Translations under genes and position numbers: made by a program | Notes under the pieces: model-generated | Database searches by the model: none | What the model saw: only the letters and a program-made list of their open reading frames with translations | Told to the model about the DNA's origin: nothing | Source of the DNA: an uncultured Candidatus Peribacteria bacterium | GTDB lineage: Bacteria > Patescibacteriota > Gracilibacteria > Peribacterales > Peribacteraceae | Direction: 5' to 3' | Assembly: GCA_964562885.1 (NCBI GenBank) | Contig: CAZLVC010000001.1 | Location: 152,688 to 216,687, forward strand | Length of the DNA stretch: 64,000 nt | Shown here: piece after piece, positions 4,489-41,976 of the stretch | Layout of the letters: each line of letters opens with the position of its first letter | Numbering within the stretch: the stretch's first letter is position 1

Positions 4489-4959
4489 TTAAGCTACACT
4501 TTTACGTGCTGCGACTCCGCGTGAATCGAAGCCTCCGAGCGCATCTAGTAATCCACTTGTTGCGCTTCCGGGGAAGCGAATCACGTCTGCCACAAGTTTA
4601 AGCGGTCTTGGTGGTAAAAGATGCGAGCCCGTTGCTTTGACGTCCCTGCCTAGTTCGCCAAAGGCTCCATCAGGTACTGAAATTCTTTCACCTACCACTC
4701 CTCCAAGCACTGCGTCAATTGCTCTACTTGTTCCATTAACGACCGCGAGTGGCAGTCCAAAGATCAATTTTGCATGGTTGCCTTCTTTCAGCGGTGTTGC
4801 AATGTAACGTTCTGCGGTATCTGCTGCGACTTCCTGTAGATTTTCGCCAATAGTATTACGAAAAAGTAATCGATCTTCTGTCGATGAATATTTGTGCAAA
4901 TGCTTCATGAGTGCATTTATTATAAGCATCACGATGTTTATATCAATGATTTTCTGCAT
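4489..4959 (-). CDS. Hypothetical protein
   Basis: 156-aa ORF directly upstream of, and co-oriented with, the FmdB-like gene. No recognisable motif. Confidence 0.55.
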   Translation of the reverse strand: MQKIIDINIVMLIINALMKHLHKYSSTEDRLLFRNTIGENLQEVAADTAERYIATPLKEGNHAKLIFGLPLAVVNGTSRAIDAVLGGVVGERISVPDGAFGELGRDVKATGSHLLPPRPLKLVADVIRFPGSATSGLLDALGGFDSRGVAARKSVA

Positions 4960-4967
4960 TAAATTTC

Positions 4968-4996
4968 TGCCGCAGAGAGGGTTAGTCTCTGCGGCA
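4968..4996. other. Perfect 11-bp hairpin (TGCCGCAGAGA-gggttag-TCTCTGCGGCA)
   Basis: Inverted repeat read directly from the sequence. It sits 9 nt upstream of the ATG of ORF 4489-4959 on the minus strand and has no U-tract. Confidence 0.5.
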
Positions 4997-5330
4997 TGGA
5001 GTTTGACCCCCTTTTCACCTCTTAAATGGCTTTAAGAGGATATTATTTTTCGGTGGCGTCGACGACGCCAGGAAAAATAAGCTCAGAAAAACGATTGCGA
5101 TGAGAACAAGAACGCCGATCGTCTTCATTTTCAACCTTTTGAGTTAAGGAAGGGGATCAAACTTAATATTATTATACAATATTTTTATATTAAAAGATAG
5201 TGTCTTTTCTGCAATTACTTATTGTTAAGTAGATCTTTTCAATAAATATATTTTTATCTTTTTTATGAATTCTATGAGTTTTTTTCATGATGAATTTTTC
5301 ATAAATAGGTGTGTTGATTTGCCTTAGCTA

Positions 5331-5425
5331 TTCATTTTTCTTCTTGAGGGAGGAGGACACCTTGTTCGGTTTCCTCCTCCCTCAATCTCCCTCCACCTTC
5401 CTAACGGTACCCGTTTTTCTTTGCT
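5331..5425 (+). repeat. Structured hairpin element, copy 1 (short form)
   Basis: A 14-bp perfect stem, TTGAGGGAGGAGGA (5344-5357) / TCCTCCTCCCTCAA (5372-5385), is followed by AACGG-TAC-CCGTT plus a T-run (5403-5418). Homologous to 25040-25180. Confidence 0.6.
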
Positions 5426-5531
5426 ATGAGTTTTTACAGAATCAGCGAGTTAATTTGCTTTCTCCTGCAATCAAAAGTGTATTATTCTATCTCGCGTTAT
5501 ACTTCACTTCTATTTTCTCCTCTAACTTACC

Positions 5532-8315
5532 GTGCTCGATAAAGCGTACGATCCAAAATTAACTGAAGATCGCATCTATCATGCATGGGAGGCAAGTGGT
5601 GCGTTTACGCCTGAGTCTTGTCCGAAAGATGGCGAGCCTTTTTGCATTAGCATGCCACCCCCTAATGCCACAGGCCAATTGCACCTTGGGCATGCGGTGA
5701 TGCTTGCATTACAGGATATTTTTACTCGTTTTGCTCGCATGAAAGGTAAAAAGGTTCTGTGGGTTCCGGGGACTGATCATGCTGCTATTGCTACTGAAAA
5801 CGTTGTCATGAAGCAATTGAAGGAAGGTGGCATGAAGGATCCTCGTAAAGAGTTAGGTCGCGAAAAACTTGTAGAAAAAATTGCAGCATTTGTGGAACAG
5901 AGTAAGAAGACGATTCGTTCGCAGGTACGAAAAATGGGAAGTTCGTGCGATTGGTCCCGTGAACGGTACACATTTGAACCTTCGCTCAATCGTTGTGTGA
6001 ACGAAGTGTTTCGCATGATGTATGCAGATGGACTTATTTACCGGGGACATCGTATTGTCAATTGGGATCCTAAGCTTCAAACAACAGTGTCCGATGACGA
6101 AGTCGTGTACAAAGAAGAAAAGACTCCTTTCTATACATTTAAGTATGGTCCTTTTGAAATTGCAACATCCCGTCCGGAGACGAAATTTGGCGATAAGTAT
6201 GTGGTAATGCACCCGGATGATACTCGGTATAGCAAGTATAAGCATGGCGATACGTTTGAAGCGGAGTGGATTAATGGTCCGGTCCGGGCAACAGTCATCA
6301 AAGATGAATCCATCGATATGGAGTTTGGTACGGGTGTGATGACTATTACGCCTTGGCATGACCATATCGACTTCGATATTGCCGAGCGTCATGGTCTCGA
6401 AAAAGAGCAAATCATTGGCTTTGATGGTCGATTACTTGATTCCACAGGTGAGTTTGCCGGAATGAAGATCGATGAAGCTAGACCGTTGATTGTTGAAAAA
6501 TTGAAATCGAAGGGTCTTCTTGTAAAAGTTGATGAGCACTACGTTCATAACAAGGCTGTTAGCCAACGAGGTGGGGGCACATTGGAGCCACAGATAAAAT
6601 TGCAGTGGTTTATTGATGTGAATAAGGAAGTAGTATCTTGGCCTCCCCAAAACCCCAAAAAGGATGATTCAGATGCGAGGCCAACGTTAAGCCTCAAACA
6701 GATTCTCCATTCGGTTGTACACCACGGTGATATTTCCATTATTCCCGATCACTTTCATAAAACGTACTTTCATTGGATTGATAACCTCCGTGACTGGTGT
6801 ATTAGTCGGCAAATTTGGTGGGGACACCGTATTCCTGTGTATTACTGTTCTACATGCTCTCATTCTTATCAAAAAACTACTACACACTCGTTGCCCTCCA
6901 ATGTATCCAGCCTACGTTCTGGTGAATATGCTTCTGCACAGACATTAACGGAATGCCCACTTTGTGGGGGTGTACTTGAGCAAGATTCCGATACGCTCGA
7001 TACATGGTTCTCGTCTGGTCTTTGGACGTGGTCAACCCTTGTAGATTCATCACTTACTCAAAATTTTGATCTTTCTCTACGCGAGATGCTCGATCGAAGC
7101 CCAGATTTTGCTACGTTTCACCCCACGACTGTGATGGAAACGGGGTACGATATTCTGTTTTTTTGGGTCGCACGTATGATCCTGATGACCACGTATGCAA
7201 CGGGTCAGATTCCCTTTAAAACAGTCTATCTACATGGTCTCATTCGTACTCGTGATGGCCGAAAAATGAGTAAATCTGATCCTGAAACCATGATTGATCC
7301 CCTCGATATCATTCCTGTCTACGGCGCGGATGCTCTACGATTATCGATGATTGTAGGCCAAAGTCCGGGGGCGGACTCTCGACTCTATGAAGAAAAAATT
7401 GCAGGGTACCGCAATTTCATTAATAAACTTTGGAATGCATCACGTTTTGTGCTTATGCAGTGCGAACAAGTTGGACTAGATCCACATACTATCCAGGGCA
7501 TTCCAGATGCTTCCGGGTTATCCTTGGCAGATCGTGCTGTTTTACATGCGACAGCATCGCTTATTGAAGAGGTGACGAAAGGTCTAGAGCAGTATCATTT
7601 AAGTGCAGTAGGGGAGCGACTCTATAGCTTTGTATGGGATTACTTTTGCGATTGGTATCTGGAACTTAGCAAAGGTAGTGCCAATCACGATGTTCTTGTT
7701 CATGTTCTTCGTTCTATTCTTTGTCTTTTGCATCCTTATTGCCCATTTGTTACGGAAGAACTGTGGTCTTCTCTTAAATACAAAGATGATTCTTCTCTCA
7801 TCCAAAAGGCGTGGCCTCTTGCACATACTGATGATAAAAATCAGCAAGCATTTGATCAGTTACAAGTCGTTATTGATGTTGTCAGCGCGTTTCGTAAGCT
7901 TCGTGCAGAACAAGGTGTAGAACTCAATAAGGAGGTTGATGGCATTATCATTAGTCCTGTGCATGCTGATCTTTTACTGTCTCAACGAGCTTCCATTCTT
8001 CGTTTAGGTAAACTAAAGAATCTGACCATTCATCAGGCATCAGTACAGGTACAAAATACTGCAAGCGCCTTTCTTTCTTCTGCGGAGGTGCATTTACCTC
8101 TTGCCGATCTTTTCGATGCAGAAACTCTCATCAAAAATCTTCGTAAGGAACAGATGGATTTAGAGAAGTACATGAGTGTTTTGCGAGGGAAGTTGGAGAA
8201 TAAGAATTTTGTTGATCGTGCACCGCCTCAATTAGTTGATGCAGAAAAGGCTAAGCTTTGTGAAGCTGAAGGTACTCTTGCAAAAATTACCGAAAAGCTA
8301 TCGCAACTTCTTTAG
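5532..8315 (+). CDS. valS: Valine--tRNA ligase
   Basis: 927-aa ORF with a GTG start. It has the HIGH-type motif (PNATGQLHLGHA), KMSKS, a CxxC...CxxC zinc module and the C-terminal coiled coil typical of ValRS. Confidence 0.97.
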   Translation: MLDKAYDPKLTEDRIYHAWEASGAFTPESCPKDGEPFCISMPPPNATGQLHLGHAVMLALQDIFTRFARMKGKKVLWVPGTDHAAIATENVVMKQLKEGGMKDPRKELGREKLVEKIAAFVEQSKKTIRSQVRKMGSSCDWSRERYTFEPSLNRCVNEVFRMMYADGLIYRGHRIVNWDPKLQTTVSDDEVVYKEEKTPFYTFKYGPFEIATSRPETKFGDKYVVMHPDDTRYSKYKHGDTFEAEWINGPVRATVIKDESIDMEFGTGVMTITPWHDHIDFDIAERHGLEKEQIIGFDGRLLDSTGEFAGMKIDEARPLIVEKLKSKGLLVKVDEHYVHNKAVSQRGGGTLEPQIKLQWFIDVNKEVVSWPPQNPKKDDSDARPTLSLKQILHSVVHHGDISIIPDHFHKTYFHWIDNLRDWCISRQIWWGHRIPVYYCSTCSHSYQKTTTHSLPSNVSSLRSGEYASAQTLTECPLCGGVLEQDSDTLDTWFSSGLWTWSTLVDSSLTQNFDLSLREMLDRSPDFATFHPTTVMETGYDILFFWVARMILMTTYATGQIPFKTVYLHGLIRTRDGRKMSKSDPETMIDPLDIIPVYGADALRLSMIVGQSPGADSRLYEEKIAGYRNFINKLWNASRFVLMQCEQVGLDPHTIQGIPDASGLSLADRAVLHATASLIEEVTKGLEQYHLSAVGERLYSFVWDYFCDWYLELSKGSANHDVLVHVLRSILCLLHPYCPFVTEELWSSLKYKDDSSLIQKAWPLAHTDDKNQQAFDQLQVVIDVVSAFRKLRAEQGVELNKEVDGIIISPVHADLLLSQRASILRLGKLKNLTIHQASVQVQNTASAFLSSAEVHLPLADLFDAETLIKNLRKEQMDLEKYMSVLRGKLENKNFVDRAPPQLVDAEKAKLCEAEGTLAKITEKLSQLL

Positions 8316-10581: not shown

Positions 10582-11484
10582 TTATCGAATGGTATCAAGT
10601 TCTTTTTCTTTGGTAATTTCAATATACATAATGGTCCAGACTGCTTGTTTAAAAATATGAAGATACGCAAAAAAGTATGCAGCTATCATTGTTACAAAGA
10701 ATCCTAACACTCCACCAATAACATAGCTTATCGATGGTTTTACAATATACGTCAGCAGTACACTGCTCCCAATAATAATGCCCGGAATTAACGTAATAAT
10801 CAGTGAGTTCATGATGATGCGAATGGTGATGATAGAAAGGAGTAAGAGCAAAAACATCACATGAGGGAGGTAGCTAAAAATAAGTTTTACACTTTTAGCA
10901 CCTGATTCAAAAACCCCTAATTTATCCACAACAACACCAGATTCGGTAAAGCTGGAGAAAAATTTAATAATGTTGGAAAGTACCCAAATAATGACTGCAA
11001 CGCTTAACATCCAAATTTTTAGCGATTCTCCGTATCGGAGAATGAGTGAGATTGCTGTGATAAGAATTGTAGGAGTGGAGAAAATAAAAACTTCGTGAAT
11101 GGCAAAAATAGGAAAAAAATTATAGAGTGCCATGATAAATCCTCCTTTCAGTGGTTTTTTGTCATGAGCCTTAGCTGAGAGACCAATAATTGCTCCGGTT
11201 GCAAAACTTGGTGCAAACATTTCAATTGCAAGTAGCAGTAAAAAACCAAGAATGAGTGCCCAAAAAAGTATGGGTGGCATTGAGTGATACAACATAATTT
11301 CGATATCAAAAAATCCACCTGCCTCGCCATGAAGATACGTTGTGATAAAGTAGATCTGGTAGATAATGAGCTTAATATCGAGAAGGATTTCGAAAAGCGC
11401 CCCAATAAACCCCCACCATCGTAACGTTGGTTCGGATGTCGTTATTGCCCATGCCTGTGCAATAATTTCTCGTGGTGTAAGCAT
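10582..11484 (-). CDS. Polytopic membrane protein, function unknown
   Basis: 300-aa ORF with at least 6 hydrophobic spans. Confidence 0.7.
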   Translation of the reverse strand: MLTPREIIAQAWAITTSEPTLRWWGFIGALFEILLDIKLIIYQIYFITTYLHGEAGGFFDIEIMLYHSMPPILFWALILGFLLLLAIEMFAPSFATGAIIGLSAKAHDKKPLKGGFIMALYNFFPIFAIHEVFIFSTPTILITAISLILRYGESLKIWMLSVAVIIWVLSNIIKFFSSFTESGVVVDKLGVFESGAKSVKLIFSYLPHVMFLLLLLSIITIRIIMNSLIITLIPGIIIGSSVLLTYIVKPSISYVIGGVLGFFVTMIAAYFFAYLHIFKQAVWTIMYIEITKEKELDTIR

Positions 11485-14904: not shown

Positions 14905-15007
14905 AGAGTAATAGGGAAGAAAAGTACCATCAGTGTACTCTCACTCTTTTCGATAGAGAATCTTTCTTTTTAGAAAGAAAGCACCTTTGAGAAAGGTGTA
15001 AAGAAAA

Positions 15008-15033
15008 AGGCCCTCTTTTTTATGAGAGAGCCT
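15008..15033 (-). terminator. Intrinsic terminator after the zinc-ribbon gene
   Basis: On the minus strand, AGGCTCTCT-loop-AGAGGGCCT is followed by TTTTTCTTT. A second hairpin (CACCTTT/AAAGGTG, 14982-14999) follows. Confidence 0.6.
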
Positions 15034-15060
15034 TCGTCGTTTAGCCTTGAGCCGTAGCTA

Positions 15061-15342
15061 TTAGTTGTTTTTTTCTGCTTTGAAGCAGTTTAAACAGAGC
15101 ACTGGGCGTCCACCCTCTGATTCTGGGCGGGGCTTAAATGGAACCTCGCATGTTGTACCACATTTGGCACACGTAGCGGGGAACATTTGCCTTGTACTCA
15201 TACGCTCGTTCTTGCGCTTATCGCGACAAGTTTTGCAGCGCTGAGGGGCAGCGAGGCCACGTTCTGCGTAGAAAGCCTGTTCACCCTCTGTAAAGGAGAA
15301 AACAGCTCCGCAGTCGCGGCATGTAAGGTCCTGATCGGCCAT
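15061..15342 (-). CDS. Zinc-ribbon domain protein (duplicated CxxC pairs)
   Basis: CRDCG...CKTCR and CAKCG...CLNCF. The ATG at 15342 (MADQDLTCRDCG) is preferred as the start. Confidence 0.8.
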   Translation of the reverse strand: MADQDLTCRDCGAVFSFTEGEQAFYAERGLAAPQRCKTCRDKRKNERMSTRQMFPATCAKCGTTCEVPFKPRPESEGGRPVLCLNCFKAEKNN

Positions 15343-15494
15343 ACAAATGAAAGAAAAAAGGAAGTAAAACTGCAACGACCTTGTTTTCCTATTCTTTCGG
15401 TTGTATTCCGATGTGAACCTGGTCGACGAAGGTGTTAGCTTTAAAAGTCTACGCTATATTGACAAGTTTTGTCAATGGTTTTCTGATTAATCTT

Positions 15495-21585: not shown

Positions 21586-22932
21586 TTATACTTGCACCTC
21601 TAGGACTACTTTATCGTGTAATTCTTGGATATTCCACAGGAGTTCACTTGGTATCTTGTCAAAAAATTCTTTAAGAATATCACGGAGTTCCCCTCGTATA
21701 TTTGATGGAATGAAAGAAGCTTCGTTTATCAGCCAATCTAGTCTGATCTCGTTCTGCGCGACCCTTTTCCCTGTTTCACGATTGATTGTTTTTTCAATAG
21801 TTTCCCTATCATTTGAGATGATGTAGTTATTGCTTTGTCGTGCGAGCCAGAGTGACCCTATATTCTGCATCTTCCATTCCCTAATCTTTTTCACATGTTC
21901 TTGATTAGTATTTGCGATAATATCGATGCGTACATTTTTGTCAGGAAGGGGAATTTTTCGTTGTATTCCTCCGCGATACTCTGCTTGGTATTTTTGGATG
22001 AATTCTTCTAAATGTTTTGGTGTTTCGGTACTTCCTATTAGTGTAAATGATATTTTTTTCTCTTGATTGCGCGAGAGAACAAATTCTATAGGCCTTGCTA
22101 GGACATTCTTTGCATAATCATGCAGAAAAAGCATGGATTGTTCTTCTAGTATTCCAAGGAAAATTCCTTCTAGGCCTTGCGCAAGGTCTTCATTGTATTT
22201 TTGTAATTGCTGTATGAATTGAGCTCCAAAGTGAAGAGGGGATTGATGCGAGAACCGGAGTAAGGTGACATAACCCTCTGGTAATTGAATAACATGCGAA
22301 AGATCATGATGTACCCCCTCATTTTTTGATTTGTTTTGGAGTGCAACACTCAGATGAGCATCGTCTACCCATTTCATACTTAGTGCGTACCAAGGATGCA
22401 GGATTGACTGAAGGATAGTTAGTATTTCGTTTTTGGTCGAATGCTCATGCAATGGCTCCAATGAAGCCCAAATTCCTTCGTGATTTAATCCTATTTCCTC
22501 TTTAAAAAAAGTATCCTCGAGCATTGTTTTTTTACTTTTTATTCCTCTTAGTTCCTTCTGCACTCCATTCTCGTACAATTGCTGTAAGCCAAGTGGTGTT
22601 TGGGTAAGTACCTTGTACACCAGTAAAGAGCCTGATTTCTGTAGCACAATTTCATTTTCGATGTGTTGTTCTGCCTTAACGATGGTCCTTGGGTCGATTC
22701 TTGTAAATTGTCTTATAAAGAAATTGATGAATTGTACGGCTCTTTCTTCAGTTGTTGATGAGAATGTTCGTGCAAATACAATGGTATTGTTTAAATTTTG
22801 CGTCGTAGCAAGTGTTTTTTTGTTGTGTTCAACGTGCATCCACCACTGTGTTAGGACAATACTCATGCACAAGACAATAAGTGTTGCTATCGAGATCACA
22901 ATTCCTCTTTTTGCGTAGTCATTTAGCTGCAT
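21586..22932 (-). CDS. Membrane-anchored hypothetical protein
   Basis: The long ORF is 490 aa in the track, or 448 aa from the ATG at 22932. It has a single N-terminal TM span and no SecD-like C-terminal TM bundle. Confidence 0.6.
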   Translation of the reverse strand: MQLNDYAKRGIVISIATLIVLCMSIVLTQWWMHVEHNKKTLATTQNLNNTIVFARTFSSTTEERAVQFINFFIRQFTRIDPRTIVKAEQHIENEIVLQKSGSLLVYKVLTQTPLGLQQLYENGVQKELRGIKSKKTMLEDTFFKEEIGLNHEGIWASLEPLHEHSTKNEILTILQSILHPWYALSMKWVDDAHLSVALQNKSKNEGVHHDLSHVIQLPEGYVTLLRFSHQSPLHFGAQFIQQLQKYNEDLAQGLEGIFLGILEEQSMLFLHDYAKNVLARPIEFVLSRNQEKKISFTLIGSTETPKHLEEFIQKYQAEYRGGIQRKIPLPDKNVRIDIIANTNQEHVKKIREWKMQNIGSLWLARQSNNYIISNDRETIEKTINRETGKRVAQNEIRLDWLINEASFIPSNIRGELRDILKEFFDKIPSELLWNIQELHDKVVLEVQV

Positions 22933-23164
22933 AGATGCAGTGTAACAGTACTTCCTTGTGAATACATTTGTTGAACGAAGAACATAATTTCTTAAAAAAT
23001 CAATATGTAATACTTGTGTTTTTTTCTTACAAAGGTACAATGAAACGATTTCTTTCAAAAGAAAAAGAAATCAAACACAAAAAAGAAAGATACAAACACA
23101 TAAGGCTCCGGAGCCACCTTATACAAAAGATCCTTCTCACCATTGCATGTTTTAGAGAAAGAAG

Positions 23165-23495
23165 TGGAAGACATTCAGATGATTTTCATTCTTTCTTCAG
23201 TTGAGAGGATCGTGTACGTACGCGATATGCGTGTACGCTCCTCTCTGCTCTGTAATGACGCATCGTTGGTACGAATGAGTCTAACGATGTGCATCCTTTC
23301 CTCCCCAGTGTTCTCCCGAAGCTTTTTGCATCGCGTGATGGACCGGTACGGGGACTTCGGTCGGTCCCGAGGAGAAACAAGAGACCAAAACAAGGCAGAG
23401 AATTCGGGGCTCATTCACCCAGTTAACCCTCCGCACGCAGGCTCAGCGAACGTTTGCATCATTCATTCGTTGATAGCCGAGGAGGCGAAAACAAA
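23165..23495. ncRNA. Unclassified GC-rich structured RNA candidate
   Basis: About 55% G+C by hand count, against AT-rich flanks. At least 8 local or long-range helices including UUCG-type hairpins. No credible ORF. Bounded by hairpins at 23104-23115 and 23499-23524. Strand unresolved. Confidence 0.5.
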
Positions 23496-23498
23496 TAC

Positions 23499-23524
23499 AA
23501 AAGGACCAGCAATGGTCTTTTTGT
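23499..23524. terminator. Bidirectional terminator-like hairpin
   Basis: GACCA-gcaa-TGGTC flanked by an A-run upstream and a T-run downstream. It lies 20 nt beyond the TPR gene stop. Confidence 0.7.
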
Positions 23525-23543
23525 CTGTATACCATATTTCGTA

Positions 23544-24863
23544 TTATTGTTTCAGTGTTTTTTCGATACTCAGTGCTTCAATATTCCGTGGGTCAAGGCG
23601 TAACGCTCGATTCACATATTCTTTCGCATCTTCAGGCACACCAGCACCGAGAGCTGCTTTAGCGCTCAACGAAAGCATTTCTGGCGATTCTTGCCACTTC
23701 GCAAGCCCTGCTCTTGCGACTTCCAATGCATCGAGTGCGTGCGTTGCGGTCGTCGTTGCAAGGGTAATATACATGCGAAAATCATCAATTGATGCCTGTG
23801 GCATTTCGGCAATTATTTTCAATTGTTCAAGACTAAGGTCAATATTGCCAAGCTCTCGTGCATATTCGCTAAGGAGCTGACGTGCGTCTCGTTCTGGTTG
23901 AAAGCCGTTGATGACGGCGTACTGTAAAAATGTCACCGCGTTTTGTGGGTCACCAAGTGCAGCATATGTCCGAGCAAGAAAGTATTGAATTTCTGGCTTT
24001 TGAGGGTCGATACTGTAGGCTTCTTGTAATGATTGTAATGCATCCTGCTGCCTATCAGTTGAAAATTCGCAGTAGCCTTTTACGATCCATGCATCGCGAT
24101 ATTTGCCTTCAGTTTTAAGCACGGTTTGAAGGAGCTGAAGCGCTGTTTCGCATTCATGAACTTCGGCTAAGGCTCTTGCAACTAGTGTGAATAGGTGCGC
24201 ATCTTGTCCATGCGGAAAGAGGGCAAACTCATTCATTGCCTTGATGATACTTTTTGCGTTTTGTTGGAGGACAATATTTCCTTCTGAGGCAACTTTTTCT
24301 AGTGCGACCTTTGCTTCATCCATTTGAAGTTTAGTGATGCTTATGAGGGCTGTAATGTACTTCGCCATTGGCGAAGCTGGATTTCGCGAAAGAATACTCT
24401 GTGCAGTATCGACATCGCCCATTCGTAGTGCGGTGATTGCTTCAAAATACAGAAGGTCATCGTCGTTCGTACTTACTTCCTTTAGGAGCTGTATCGTCTC
24501 TTTGGCTTCGTCGTATTTTCGTCGTTGTAGCTGTAAGAGCGCAAGTTTTTTCATTGCGGTTGCCCCACCTCCCTTGGCAATGCTTTCTTTGTATTTTTCT
24601 TCTGCCTGTTGCCATATTCCTTTTACTTCAAAAATTTCTGCTTCGCGTAGCGACGTTAACGCTTCCGATTCTGAGCCAAAAAACTCCATTGAACTGTTTT
24701 TTACCGGCATTCCTTCCAATAATGTTGATGATGGTCCTTTTTCTATTCCGTTTTCAATTTCTGCGATAGAACGATGAATTTGTCCTAAATAGAACATCAT
24801 GATTCCTCCGCCAAAACAGAGGGCAATAACTATTGGTGCGTAGATACGAATTGGAATTTTCAC
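23544..24863 (-). CDS. TPR repeat protein with N-terminal membrane anchor
   Basis: N-terminal TM segment, then multiple 34-aa TPR-like repeats (A..Y..A...P....AL..L). Confidence 0.85.
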   Translation of the reverse strand: MKIPIRIYAPIVIALCFGGGIMMFYLGQIHRSIAEIENGIEKGPSSTLLEGMPVKNSSMEFFGSESEALTSLREAEIFEVKGIWQQAEEKYKESIAKGGGATAMKKLALLQLQRRKYDEAKETIQLLKEVSTNDDDLLYFEAITALRMGDVDTAQSILSRNPASPMAKYITALISITKLQMDEAKVALEKVASEGNIVLQQNAKSIIKAMNEFALFPHGQDAHLFTLVARALAEVHECETALQLLQTVLKTEGKYRDAWIVKGYCEFSTDRQQDALQSLQEAYSIDPQKPEIQYFLARTYAALGDPQNAVTFLQYAVINGFQPERDARQLLSEYARELGNIDLSLEQLKIIAEMPQASIDDFRMYITLATTTATHALDALEVARAGLAKWQESPEMLSLSAKAALGAGVPEDAKEYVNRALRLDPRNIEALSIEKTLKQ

Positions 24864-25039
24864 AGTGTCAGCGTAGCAGCCTTTTTTTTCTCAGCAATTG
24901 TTAAAAAATGAAAATATTCGATGATTTCCTTTTTCTTATTACATATAGTTAGAGCTAACTCAAAATATTTTTACAGACAATTGCAGTCTTAGGTTTCACG
25001 AATAGTGAAAAGTTTAGATGTCCTGTTTTATTGCAGTTA

Positions 25040-25180
25040 CTCATTTTCTTCTTGAGAGAGGAGGACCCCTTGTTCGACTCACACTGATAAGCCCTTGAGC
25101 GATAGCGGAAGGTATCAGTTAGTCCCGTAAAAGATTCCCTCCTCCATCAATTTCTTTAACGGTACCTGTTTTCCTTTGGC
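25040..25180 (+). repeat. Structured hairpin element, copy 2 (long form with inserted helix)
   Basis: Same left flank and stem as copy 1 (25052-25065 / 25137-25150). An extra GACT/AGTC + ACTGATA/TATCAGT helix is inserted in the loop. The same AACGG-TAC-CTGTT hairpin is present at 25158-25170. Confidence 0.6.
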
Positions 25181-25247
25181 AAGAACTTTCTTCCATAAAA
25201 AATAAAGCACTCTTTTTATTTGAATTAAGCTTTACATCGGCGATATT

Positions 25248-32980: not shown

Positions 32981-33017
32981 GGGCATGATGAAAAAGCATT
33001 GATTTTGTATATGTATT

Positions 33018-33093
33018 TGGTGGAGCTGAGGAGACTCGAACTCCTGACCCTCTGGTTGCAAACCAGATGCTCTACCAGCTGAGCTACAGCCCC
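33018..33093 (-). tRNA. tRNA-Ala (UGC), CCA encoded
   Basis: The reverse complement GGGGCTGTAGCTCAGCTGGTAGAGCATCTGGTTTGCAACCAGAGGGTCAGGAGTTCGAGTCTCCTCAGCTCCACCA folds canonically. The G3:U70 identity pair is present. Confidence 0.95.
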
Positions 33094-33171
33094 ACATATA
33101 GGGTTACGTACTGGATATTACCGATCGATTCTACTGACATTCTAACAATTTCTCAATATCTAGTTTTAAAT

Positions 33172-33408
33172 TTACGAAGCGTTGTTTTGAAAGAGATTAA
33201 TAATGGGAGAAAAGAGAAAGTGAGTAGTGCCCGTCATGGTTGCGACGCTCCAGAAAAAGCCGAAAATAGCACAGATGAGAAGGACGTTATAAATGCCCCC
33301 AACTTTGCTTGCCCACTCGGGTTGTCCAATGGCGTCACCTACACCTTCACGGTATTTAATAAGGAGTATTGAGCACGCGATGCCAAAAATACCTAAAACG
33401 AACTGCAT
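33172..33408 (-). CDS. Small membrane protein, hypothetical
   Basis: 78-aa ORF with 2-3 hydrophobic spans. Confidence 0.5.
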   Translation of the reverse strand: MQFVLGIFGIACSILLIKYREGVGDAIGQPEWASKVGGIYNVLLICAIFGFFWSVATMTGTTHFLFSPIINLFQNNAS

Positions 33409-33432
33409 ACGAGAAGTAGAAAAAACGAAGAC

Positions 33433-33750
33433 TTAAAGCGCTGCGTCCAGCTTAGCAGATACATCTGCGCCTGAATGTACTCCGATGAATGTATCTATTG
33501 CTGTTCCGTTTTTAAAAAGTATGAATGTTGGAATACTCATCACACTGAATTTGCCTGGTGTTTCCTGATTTTCATCAACATTCATTTTGACAAAAGTTAC
33601 TTTTCCTTCGTACTTTTTTGCTAATTCCTCAATAACAGGGAGCATCGCTTTGCAAGGACCGCACCAAGGAGCCCAAAAGTCTACAAGTACAGGGATAGAA
33701 GATTGTAGAACTTTTGTGTCAAAGTCTGCGTCAGTTATTGAGGTTGGCAT
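33433..33750 (-). CDS. trxA: Thioredoxin
   Basis: WAPWCGPCK active site, 105 aa. Confidence 0.95.
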   Translation of the reverse strand: MPTSITDADFDTKVLQSSIPVLVDFWAPWCGPCKAMLPVIEELAKKYEGKVTFVKMNVDENQETPGKFSVMSIPTFILFKNGTAIDTFIGVHSGADVSAKLDAAL

Positions 33751-33824
33751 GAGAAATGGGGAAAGAAATGATGACTATTTTAGTCTAACAGCTTACTCTG
33801 AAATTTGAAATTTTATCTCAATAT

Positions 33825-41554: not shown

Positions 41555-41607
41555 GAAGGCGCATTTGCCTTGCGAATTAGTCTGTTTTCTCGTACACTCC
41601 CATAGCT

Positions 41608-41895
41608 ATGAAGAAAGATATTCATCCAACAATGCATTTCGATTCCGTCACAACGTGTATGTCATGTGGCGCGAAGTTTGATGTCCCTAGTACGGTAAAG
41701 GTCATGCAAGTTGAAGTTTGCTCATTTTGTCATCCTGTCTATACAGGTGAATTCCGCTCAACAATGGCCTCAGGTCGTGTCGATCGCTTCCGTAAGGCTG
41801 CAGAAGCTAGTAAAAAGAAACAAGAAGTTTTGAAGGAAATTGAGGAAAAGCGCAAAACAAAGCCGGTAAAGACGAAGAAGGTGATGAAAAAGTAG
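41608..41895 (+). CDS. rpmE: 50S ribosomal protein L31
   Basis: MKKDIHP...C..C...C.FCHPVYTG motif with a Lys-rich C-terminal extension. Confidence 0.92.
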   Translation: MKKDIHPTMHFDSVTTCMSCGAKFDVPSTVKVMQVEVCSFCHPVYTGEFRSTMASGRVDRFRKAAEASKKKQEVLKEIEEKRKTKPVKTKKVMKK

Positions 41896-41976
41896 CATGT
41901 TTTTTTCTTCAGTGCGCTGATATCTTCCTTTTCGCTTATCCATGCGTCTTTTTGTGTTTTGTGCTATACTAGAAGC

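Follow-up and report, generated by a model that had tools for sequence, protein, structure and literature searches.

A gap of 611 bp at positions 22933–23543 separates two minus-strand genes in the DNA analysed here, a stretch of 64,000 nucleotides (nt) on contig CAZLVC010000001.1 of an uncultured Candidatus Peribacteria bacterium (hereafter, the window). The gap extends from the stop codon of a gene for a TPR protein (23544) to the ATG of a gene for a 448-amino acid (aa) protein (22932), and SecF, trigger factor (Tig), RelA/SpoT, PfkB and a Big_1/fn3 surface protein are encoded in its neighbourhood. A preliminary description of this DNA had put the gap at about 610 bp and proposed that it holds an unannotated, multi-helix structured RNA. 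The base composition is as described there, with a G+C content of 0.57–0.58 in the centre (23300–23449) versus 0.25 in the AT-rich flank (23000–23099). The gap also lacks a credible open reading frame (ORF), as had been stated: the 245-aa ORF at 23143–23880 of the plus strand exists, but it is not conserved as coding sequence. The proposed RNA itself is borne out by the comparison with homologues.

A metagenome scan with a pattern built from invariant columns added 34 contigs to those of the first relatives, and nhmmer then located the element at 41 loci, in addition to its single copy in the window. The homologues come from genomes and metagenomes of Peribacteria and Peregrinibacteria, and 35 distinct full-length copies were aligned with MAFFT (alignment A3). 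A block of about 300 nt (approximately 23200–23525 in the window) is conserved at 80–90% DNA identity across aligned gaps. The flanking proteins diverge more than this RNA core, with identities of 37–53% for the TPR protein and 41–70% for SecF, about 50% overall. Within the best-conserved block, runs of gaps are predominantly 1 nt (116 cases) or 2 nt (97 cases) long, versus only 5 of 3 nt, and column entropy is flat over codon positions (0.50, 0.54 and 0.52), with no 3-periodicity. These indels, together with the flat entropy, lead us to reject a coding interpretation: the conserved region is non-coding. We therefore give almost no credence to the idea that there is no RNA gene at all, only a small protein gene, a pseudogene in decay or the remnant of a mobile element that happens to fold well. 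Stop-free stretches of 51–128 codons do occur on both strands, and insertions of DUF559 and bAvd genes in relatives L084 and L088, respectively, show that the gap tolerates mobile DNA. However, besides the pattern of indels and the lack of codon periodicity, compensatory base-pair changes are extensive, and the element is single-copy, holds a fixed syntenic position across the class, and is accompanied by no transposase. Consistently, a phage DNA database gave no match.

The plus strand folds with z = −5.28 over 23100–23530 and with z = −5.85 over 23047–23526, which spans the predicted transcript, and in both cases none of 100 shuffled sequences was as stable; for the minus strand z is only −2.16. 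RNAalifold, applied to A3, returned 49 pairs, 26 of them with compensatory changes on both sides. A pseudoknot stem was added to this structure by eye; in this stem column 297 (C in 25 and U in 10 sequences) matches its partner column 314 (G in 25, A in 10). The resulting structure comprises 52 pairs in 10 helices, and 95.6% of its cells are paired, versus 40–49% when the 3′ partners are slid by 1–3 columns. Changes on both sides affect 219 cells, a number that none of 500 shuffles reached (mean 64.5), and they are seen at 28 pairs versus 20.0 in shuffles; the covariation score is 0.360 versus 0.163. Compensatory changes in excess of controls, by which a structured noncoding RNA (ncRNA) gene is generically recognised, are thus present.

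About half of the helices listed in the preliminary description are conserved. The pairings 23203–09/23239–45, 23261–67/23283–89, 23427–32/23481–85 and 23440–43/23475–78 correspond to helix P1, helix P3 (in which all 7 pairs covary), the covarying outer stem of P7 and helix P7a, respectively. The other half fared less well, and the pseudoknot had been missed. Pairings 23329–32/23337–40 and 23366–70/23404–08 are unconserved or in the wrong register; the bases of 23340–45/23362–67 take part in P4b and the pseudoknot instead; and in place of 23449–52/23468–71 the true register is that of P7b (23446–50/23466–70). The proposed long-range pairing of GUUCUCC with GGAGAAAC (23310–16/23371–78) is not supported: it joins two segments that are both invariant, and its first strand pairs elsewhere, 23310–15 with 23337–43, where GUUC faces GGAC or GAAC in the covarying helix P4b.

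Two helices blurred in the MAFFT alignment, P1 and the outer stem of P7, were checked separately. The inner half of P1 covaries freely, and the insert that it encloses is lineage-specific and ranges from 14 to 170 nt. The outer P7 stem occurs as CCCUCC/GGAGG, CCUUCC/GGAAG, CCUCUC/GAGAGG, CCCUUC/GAAGGG and CUUUUC/GAAAAG, and its mean duplex energy is −12.4 kcal/mol versus −6.4 kcal/mol for shuffled sequence; a CA/UGAU internal loop is conserved in the same domain. P2 is 98.9% paired and covaries at 2 pairs, and the P4/P5 region (23302–23354) has the invariant internal-loop bases CCCC-AGU-GUUC/GAAC-CGGUnC-GGGG. Invariant nucleotides cluster around the P2/P4/pseudoknot junction, in internal loops and in the pseudoknot loop. 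Two GAGGAG motifs were considered as mimics of Shine–Dalgarno sequences and rejected: one is a strand of pseudoknot S1, the other a strand of the outer P7 stem.

As for orientation, the preliminary description had leaned towards the minus strand, whereas the data place the RNA on the plus strand. Read in the plus orientation, the structure has 176 G-U versus 21 A-C pairs and two invariant U-G wobbles (34/35 sequences in P2 and 35/35 in S1), and both consensus and single-sequence folds are better on this strand; on the minus strand pairing drops to 87%. The excess of G-U over A-C pairs agrees with the direction of a predicted promoter and terminator. At the 19 loci with enough upstream sequence, the promoter spacer is 16 nt long at 15 loci and 17 nt at the other 4, and the −10 box lies exactly 5 nt from the base of a 5′ hairpin in 19/19. 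By its sequence the site is a sigma-70-type promoter (−35 TTGnnn, −10 TAnnnT, spacing of 16–18 nt); a simple promoter scan had missed it because the −35 box matches merely 3–4 of 6 positions. At the other end, 33/33 homologues have a hairpin with ΔG ≤ −6 kcal/mol and then a run of 4 or more U (UUUUUG), and its stem sequences vary yet stay complementary. The consensus terminator scan detected the window site on the minus strand as well, so that this hairpin (23499–23524) is indeed bidirectional, as had been suggested. We infer a transcript of about 478 nt, 23047–23524 on the plus strand and antisense to both neighbours, with transcription probably starting at or near 23047. The unit would thus measure about 480 nt, rather than the 330–400 nt assumed before. 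It had also been held to be bounded by two hairpins, and both the terminator hairpin and the palindrome GGCTCCGGAGCC (23104–23115) are present; given the predicted start near 23047, however, the palindrome would lie inside the transcript and mark no boundary.

The element lies directly upstream of the 448-aa/SecF/trigger-factor operon in most genomes, and might accordingly be read as a cis-acting 5′ leader, riboswitch or attenuator of that operon, encoded on the minus strand. A G/U-rich run does follow the GC hairpin 23104–15 on the minus strand in several loci, and in relative L102 the RNA is inverted and hence co-directional with the SecF operon, while most copies lie antisense between the TPR gene and a gene of about 450 codons. 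Yet the G-U/A-C ratio and the 87% pairing on the minus strand argue against a leader, the geometry of promoter and 5′ hairpin, which belong to the plus strand, is fixed, and no conserved minus-strand promoter was found between the TPR stop and the core. Moreover, divergent lineages have unrelated neighbourhoods: AlaRS (L093), GatB and EF-P on either side (L104), a TrwB-like ATPase and HrcA (L094), or a TrmB-like gene (L101). Such neighbourhoods, together with the inversion in L102, indicate an autonomous trans-acting gene and no leader of the SecF operon, and we regard the leader as extremely improbable.

Its own promoter and terminator would also suit a regulatory RNA of the plus strand, be it a base-pairing small RNA (sRNA), a protein sponge or a ligand sensor whose read-through is antisense to the TPR operon. 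C/A-rich single-stranded stretches could bind protein, and in most genomes the TPR gene ends right next to the terminator, where read-through would produce antisense RNA. Nevertheless, a length of about 480 nt, an ornate 290-nt core, a pseudoknot and some 28 covarying pairs far exceed what an sRNA or a sponge needs, and short repeated motifs such as those of CsrB or CrcZ are absent. The terminator is strong, is found in all 33 homologues and has no evident alternative anti-terminator. In addition, the convergent gene is not always TPR but, for instance, EF-P in L104, and L102 has the RNA in the opposite orientation, so that antisense control of TPR cannot be the conserved function. A regulatory RNA of this kind is therefore improbable, though less so than the leader. 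The features of the proposed free-standing gene are collected in Table 1.

Table 1. Positions in the window of the two genes that border the gap and of the predicted elements of the RNA gene
Feature	Position	Strand	Remarks
448-aa protein gene, next to the gap	21586–22932	−	
−35 box, TTGTGT	23014–23019	+	TTGCGT/TTGTGT-like hexamer in 19/19 loci
−10 box, TACAAT	23036–23041	+	TAnnnT in 19/19 loci, TACAAT in 11
5′ terminal hairpin, GAUUUCUUU/AAAGAAAUC	23047–23072	+	19/19 loci
C/A-rich, G-poor single-stranded linker	23073–23103	+	Composition kept in relatives
GC palindrome hairpin, GGCUCCGGAGCC	23104–23115	+	4-bp stem, self-complementary CCGG centre
Conserved single-stranded block, GAUCCUUCUCACCAU	23129–23143	+	Consensus GAUCAUUCACAYCAC; recognisable in most loci
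Variable hairpin, lineage-specific insert	23154–23199	+	In the window fold; length and sequence unconserved in relatives
P1 long hairpin, GAGAGGA..CGUGUAC/GUACG..UCCUCUC	23203–23245	+	Helix of 10–14 bp in all 33 loci tested
P2-closed core	23245–23398	+	P2 (23245–53/23390–98) encloses P3, P4a/b, P5 and the pseudoknot
P3 hairpin	23260–23290	+	23260–66/23284–90; conserved GAG in loop; all 7 pairs changed on both sides
P4a	23302–06/23350–54	+	Invariant, 100% paired
P4b	23310–15/23337–43	+	5/6 pairs covary (UA to CG)
P5	23317–19/23331–33	+	3/3 pairs covary
H-type pseudoknot	23355–23386	+	S1, S2, L1 of 2 nt, L3
Pseudoknot S1, CUUCGU/ACGAGG	23355–60/23367–72	+	99% paired; UA24/GC8 at one pair; invariant U-G wobble 35/35
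Pseudoknot S2, GGUC/GACC	23363–66/23383–86	+	100% paired; CG25/UA10 and GC33/AU2
Pseudoknot loop 3, AGAAACAAGA	23373–82	+	Invariant, A-rich, AGAAAYAAGA
P6 small hairpin, GGGG/CCC	23406–23419	+	3/4 pairs covary (GC to AU); 93.5% paired
P7 domain	23422–23493	+	Outer stem about 23427–32/23481–85, GU../..ACA extension
P7a	23440–43/23475–78	+	Supported by covariation
P7b	23446–50/23466–70	+	Part of the 10-helix structure
Bidirectional intrinsic terminator	23499–23524	both	Plus: stem, then UUUUUGU; minus: ends the convergent TPR mRNA
TPR gene	23544–24863	−	

According to this model, the RNA would be transcribed from its own sigma-70-type promoter, antisense to both neighbours, and would stop at the terminator that also serves the convergent TPR gene. 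Its parts are a variable 5′ arm (5′ hairpin, C/A-rich linkers, GC palindrome hairpin, conserved single-stranded block and variable insert) and a core of about 290 nt, in which P1 is followed by a P2-closed junction with P3, P4/P5 and the H-type pseudoknot, and then by P6 and P7. The 5′ hairpin has the base GAUUU...AAUC and an upper stem that covaries (GAUUUGCUU/AAGCAGAUC, GAUUUGUCCC/GGGACAAGUC), and over the loci together it has 157 Watson–Crick and 12 G-U pairs on the plus strand. In relatives, the sequence on both sides of the palindrome is likewise C/A-rich, as in acaaacacacaa-GGCUCCGGAGCC-accaauacaaac. A perfect palindrome without spacer is present in about 22 of 30 loci; at least 6 different stems carry it, and its centre is CCGG, GGCC or CGCG. 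For the conserved GAUCAUUCACACCAC block a partner was sought by eye, for instance in the P3 loop, and no consistent complementarity was found. The variable insert is missing in some relatives; short tandem-like repeats are present in others, namely in L081, L088, L096, L106 and L116, where they lie between the conserved block and P1. For example, L081 and L088 have AGTATT-type units, and L096 and L106 have units of GTAGCT/GCTAC.

The alternatives left by the preliminary description were a very divergent known RNA or a new class. At gathering scores, Rfam 15 found only two tRNAs in the whole window; at E ≤ 10, region 22900–23600 (701 nt) gave only noise, and no consistent match emerged when this region and 8 diverse homologues were compared with all 4227 families, matches below roughly 14 bits going unlisted in this permissive scan. 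Within this limit no family is matched. RNase P models RF00010, RF00011, those of the archaeal and type T forms and others had no match even at E ≤ 10 in that region or the 8 homologues, ARAGORN found no transfer-messenger RNA (tmRNA) in the window, and models of OLE, ROOL, GOLLD and raiA gave nothing beyond noise. There was no Rfam match to 6S RNA either, and the multi-helix junction, the pseudoknot and the separate P6 and P7 are at odds with the single hairpin of 6S RNA. Similarly, no Rfam riboswitch matched, and in most genomes the RNA strand is opposite to both neighbours, unlike that of a cis-leader. Full-text searches of the literature for structured or noncoding RNAs of Peregrinibacteria, Peribacteria or Patescibacteria turned up no account of it.

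Among universal housekeeping RNAs that could have diverged extremely, RNase P RNA is the most plausible candidate: its size is similar, it is a single-copy trans-acting gene with housekeeping-level conservation, and it contains a pseudoknot. In bacteria of the Candidate Phyla Radiation (CPR), RNase P RNAs are divergent and fell below Rfam cut-offs in 10 of 35 complete genomes (Lui et al. 2021, PMC8172020), and for this reason the defining motifs were tested directly. In 36 sequences, on both strands, CR-I (GAGGAAAGUCC) and CR-V (ACAGAAnnnGGCUUA) had no match with up to 1 mismatch; with up to 2 mismatches CR-V still had none and CR-I had one. Together CR-I and CR-V make up P4, the universal helix of RNase P RNA, which is thus not recognisable here, and CR-IV was also absent from these sequences within 1–2 mismatches on both strands. 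A local hairpin forms the 5′ end and an intrinsic terminator the 3′ end, and the consensus fold contains no P1-type helix that joins the two. Two short resemblances are leads at most: AGCAAGGC, which we take to resemble J5/15 of E. coli M1 RNA, and GAACCGG..CUU..GGUCA, presumably similar to its CR-V. However, the AGCAAGGCAG segment is a fully paired P2 strand here instead of a single-stranded junction, and the look-alike segments stand in the wrong order for RNase P. Nor did the minus-strand motif GAGGAAAGG, which had been likened to RNase P RNA, prove informative, as it lies on the non-RNA strand and is specific to the window, relatives reading GGGGAG(A/G/U)AA(A/G)(G/A)G. Furthermore, the pseudoknot of RNase P RNA is a long-range P4/P6 one, whereas that of the Peribacteria RNA is local and of the H-type. 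The other universal RNAs fit no better: the tmRNA T-arm GGUUCGAnUCC is absent at up to 1 mismatch from 36/36 sequences, and for the signal recognition particle (SRP) there was neither an Rfam match nor an exact match to the domain IV GGAAGCAG-type motif in the 36 sequences, which at 1 mismatch occurs in 2 sequences on the plus (RNA) strand and in 7 on the minus strand. Taken together, the negative results with Rfam 15 and the missing RNase P, tmRNA and SRP signatures favour a new class and disfavour a known RNA, and we consider a diverged housekeeping RNA very unlikely.

We conclude that region ~23047–23524 of the plus strand is very probably a free-standing gene for a structured ncRNA of about 480 nt, which belongs to a so far undescribed family of Peribacteria and Peregrinibacteria. 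Several points weigh against this conclusion or parts of it. The structure was partly built from the same sequences on which it was evaluated, so that the paired percentages are somewhat too high; the controls (slid partners and shuffles) and the sheer count of compensatory changes argue against this circularity as the explanation. Transcription start, 3′ end and any processing are predictions from the nucleotide sequence. Relative L087, which is GC-rich, is devoid of the element at this locus and has a gap of 286 bp after the TPR gene. Given that CPR RNase P RNAs can miss Rfam thresholds (PMC8172020), there is also a slight chance of a very aberrant known RNA. The palindromic loop is not universal: the L082/L083/L103 sub-clade has a GACG loop, and a divergent group also lacks it. 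Finally, the genes next to the RNA do not point consistently to any function.

Its nearest known counterparts are the large 'ornate' RNAs of unknown function, although the Peribacteria RNA matches none of their models. Like OLE, ROOL, GOLLD and raiA motif RNA, it is free-standing, several hundred nucleotides long and restricted to one lineage, with many covarying helices, a pseudoknot, invariant junction and loop nucleotides and no known biochemical function. OLE, ROOL and GOLLD are larger than its approximately 480 nt, however, the host group differs (CPR/Peribacteria), and there is no association with prophages or genes for OLE-associated proteins. The RNA-polymerase-binding RNAs of the 6S and Ms1 type resemble it in being stand-alone genes of the abundant type, which start from a strong sigma-70 promoter and stop at an intrinsic terminator. 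In unusual phyla, 6S-type RNAs are often missed by Rfam. Yet 6S and Ms1 form a single long irregular hairpin with a central bubble and have a poorly conserved sequence, in contrast to the multi-domain junction, pseudoknot and long invariant sequence blocks seen here. H-type pseudoknots with an A-rich loop 3 occur in telomerase RNA, in SAM-II and preQ1-II riboswitches and in viral frameshifting elements. The geometry of the present pseudoknot matches theirs (stems S1 and S2 of 6 and 4 bp; loops L1, L2 and L3 of 2, about 0 and 10 nt, respectively), and its invariant L3 is A-rich as in those knots and suited to minor-groove triples; this loop probably sits in the minor groove of S1. Here, however, the knot is one module of a much larger fold.

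Invariant positions are located in junction, internal and pseudoknot loops, whereas peripheral helices vary and tolerate insertions. On these grounds we tentatively suggest that the RNA acts in trans as a folded molecule, that is, as a scaffold of a ribonucleoprotein (RNP) or as a core that has catalytic activity or binds a ligand, rather than through antisense pairing with mRNA. The clustering of invariant bases around P2, P4 and the pseudoknot is what a binding pocket or an active site in an RNP scaffold or a ribozyme-like RNA would show, and it is shared with other large ornate RNAs of bacteria. The palindromic loop of the 5′ arm also has a parallel among ornate RNAs: in OLE and GOLLD a hairpin-loop tetranucleotide switches among palindromes, which was taken as evidence for symmetric intermolecular kissing loops (Kretsch et al. 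2025). The switch between CCGG, GGCC and CGCG follows the same pattern and hints at homodimerisation. By this analogy the hairpin may mediate symmetric homodimerisation, a proposal that we regard as rather doubtful because the loop is missing in one sub-clade and in the divergent group. Somewhat more tentatively than the action in trans, the family could represent a new ornate RNA machine of the housekeeping type, specific to Peregrinibacteria, which works as a homodimer or oligomer through the palindromic loop or as a ribozyme or RNP core around P2, P4 and the pseudoknot. As to its role, our first guess would be a folded RNA that serves as a scaffold or as part of an RNP and that may dimerise with itself.

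New classes of large structured RNA are rare, and OLE, GOLLD, ROOL and raiA each opened structural and functional work. In the present case the hosts are uncultured CPR bacteria of groundwater with tiny genomes, and a near-invariant RNA of about 480 nt across a whole class implies an important function, which may be lineage-specific and to which protein-based annotation is blind. The RNA makes a well-defined target and suits a new Rfam family, as a predicted promoter and terminator, a structure of 10 helices including a pseudoknot and 35 diverse sequences are at hand. More generally, genes can escape notice in gaps of CPR genomes that seem empty.

Regarding the gene neighbourhood, more than 100 full-length orthologues of the TPR protein were found (37–53% identity), and the contigs of eight of them were used for synteny comparison. 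They keep the order Big_1/fn3, PfkB, a gene of ~217 aa, TPR, gap, a ~450-aa protein, SecF and Tig, and in 7 of the 8 a large gap of 580–1150 bp follows the TPR gene. A contig scan with SecF of the window found it to be 67–68% identical to SecF of metagenome-assembled genomes of Candidatus Peribacteria/Peribacteraceae; the two closest contigs end just upstream of SecF and yielded no syntenic RNA loci. The 448-aa protein has one N-terminal transmembrane segment and no match in Pfam or NCBIfam; a search of 5.8 billion proteins returned only the protein itself, which is therefore useless as a handle for relatives. Its gene occupies the slot where SecD would normally precede SecF, and the counterparts in relatives at this position are 410–470 aa long and merely 19–26% identical, which points to a lineage-specific SecF partner that evolves very fast.

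In two relatives an additional gene separates the TPR stop from the terminator of the RNA: a bAvd/23S_rRNA_IVP-family gene in L088 (6339–6695) and a DUF559 gene in L084 (6444–6827), the latter with a second DUF559 copy at 10756–11199 of the same contig. In L087, the gap after the TPR gene (6315–6599) carries the GC-rich inverted repeats cctcccgacgggagg and ctctcccgtcgggagag, which resemble REP-like palindromes.

Elsewhere in the window, whose genome is otherwise compact, long gaps of 400–840 bp between ORFs of at least 120 aa are found at 4960–5531, 14905–15494, 32981–33824 and 41555–41958. The sole Rfam match in these four gaps is tRNA-Ala at 33018–33093, and they may hide further unannotated elements. 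A second GC-rich island is located in the AT-rich gap upstream of the TPR gene (24864–25247, core at about 25050–25150, minus strand). It folds into a structure of about 95 nt closed by GGAGGAGG/CCUCCUC (minimum free energy −37.1 kcal/mol, z = −2.2), has no Rfam match, and has no equivalent at the same position in relatives. A shorter second copy of it lies at about 5290–5455, in the large gap upstream of the minus-strand gene 4489–4959, and both copies share the flanks TCATTTTTCTTCTTGAGRGAGGAGGAC.../...TAACGGTACCYGTTTT. The pair looks like a genome-specific dispersed intergenic repeat or a leader element.

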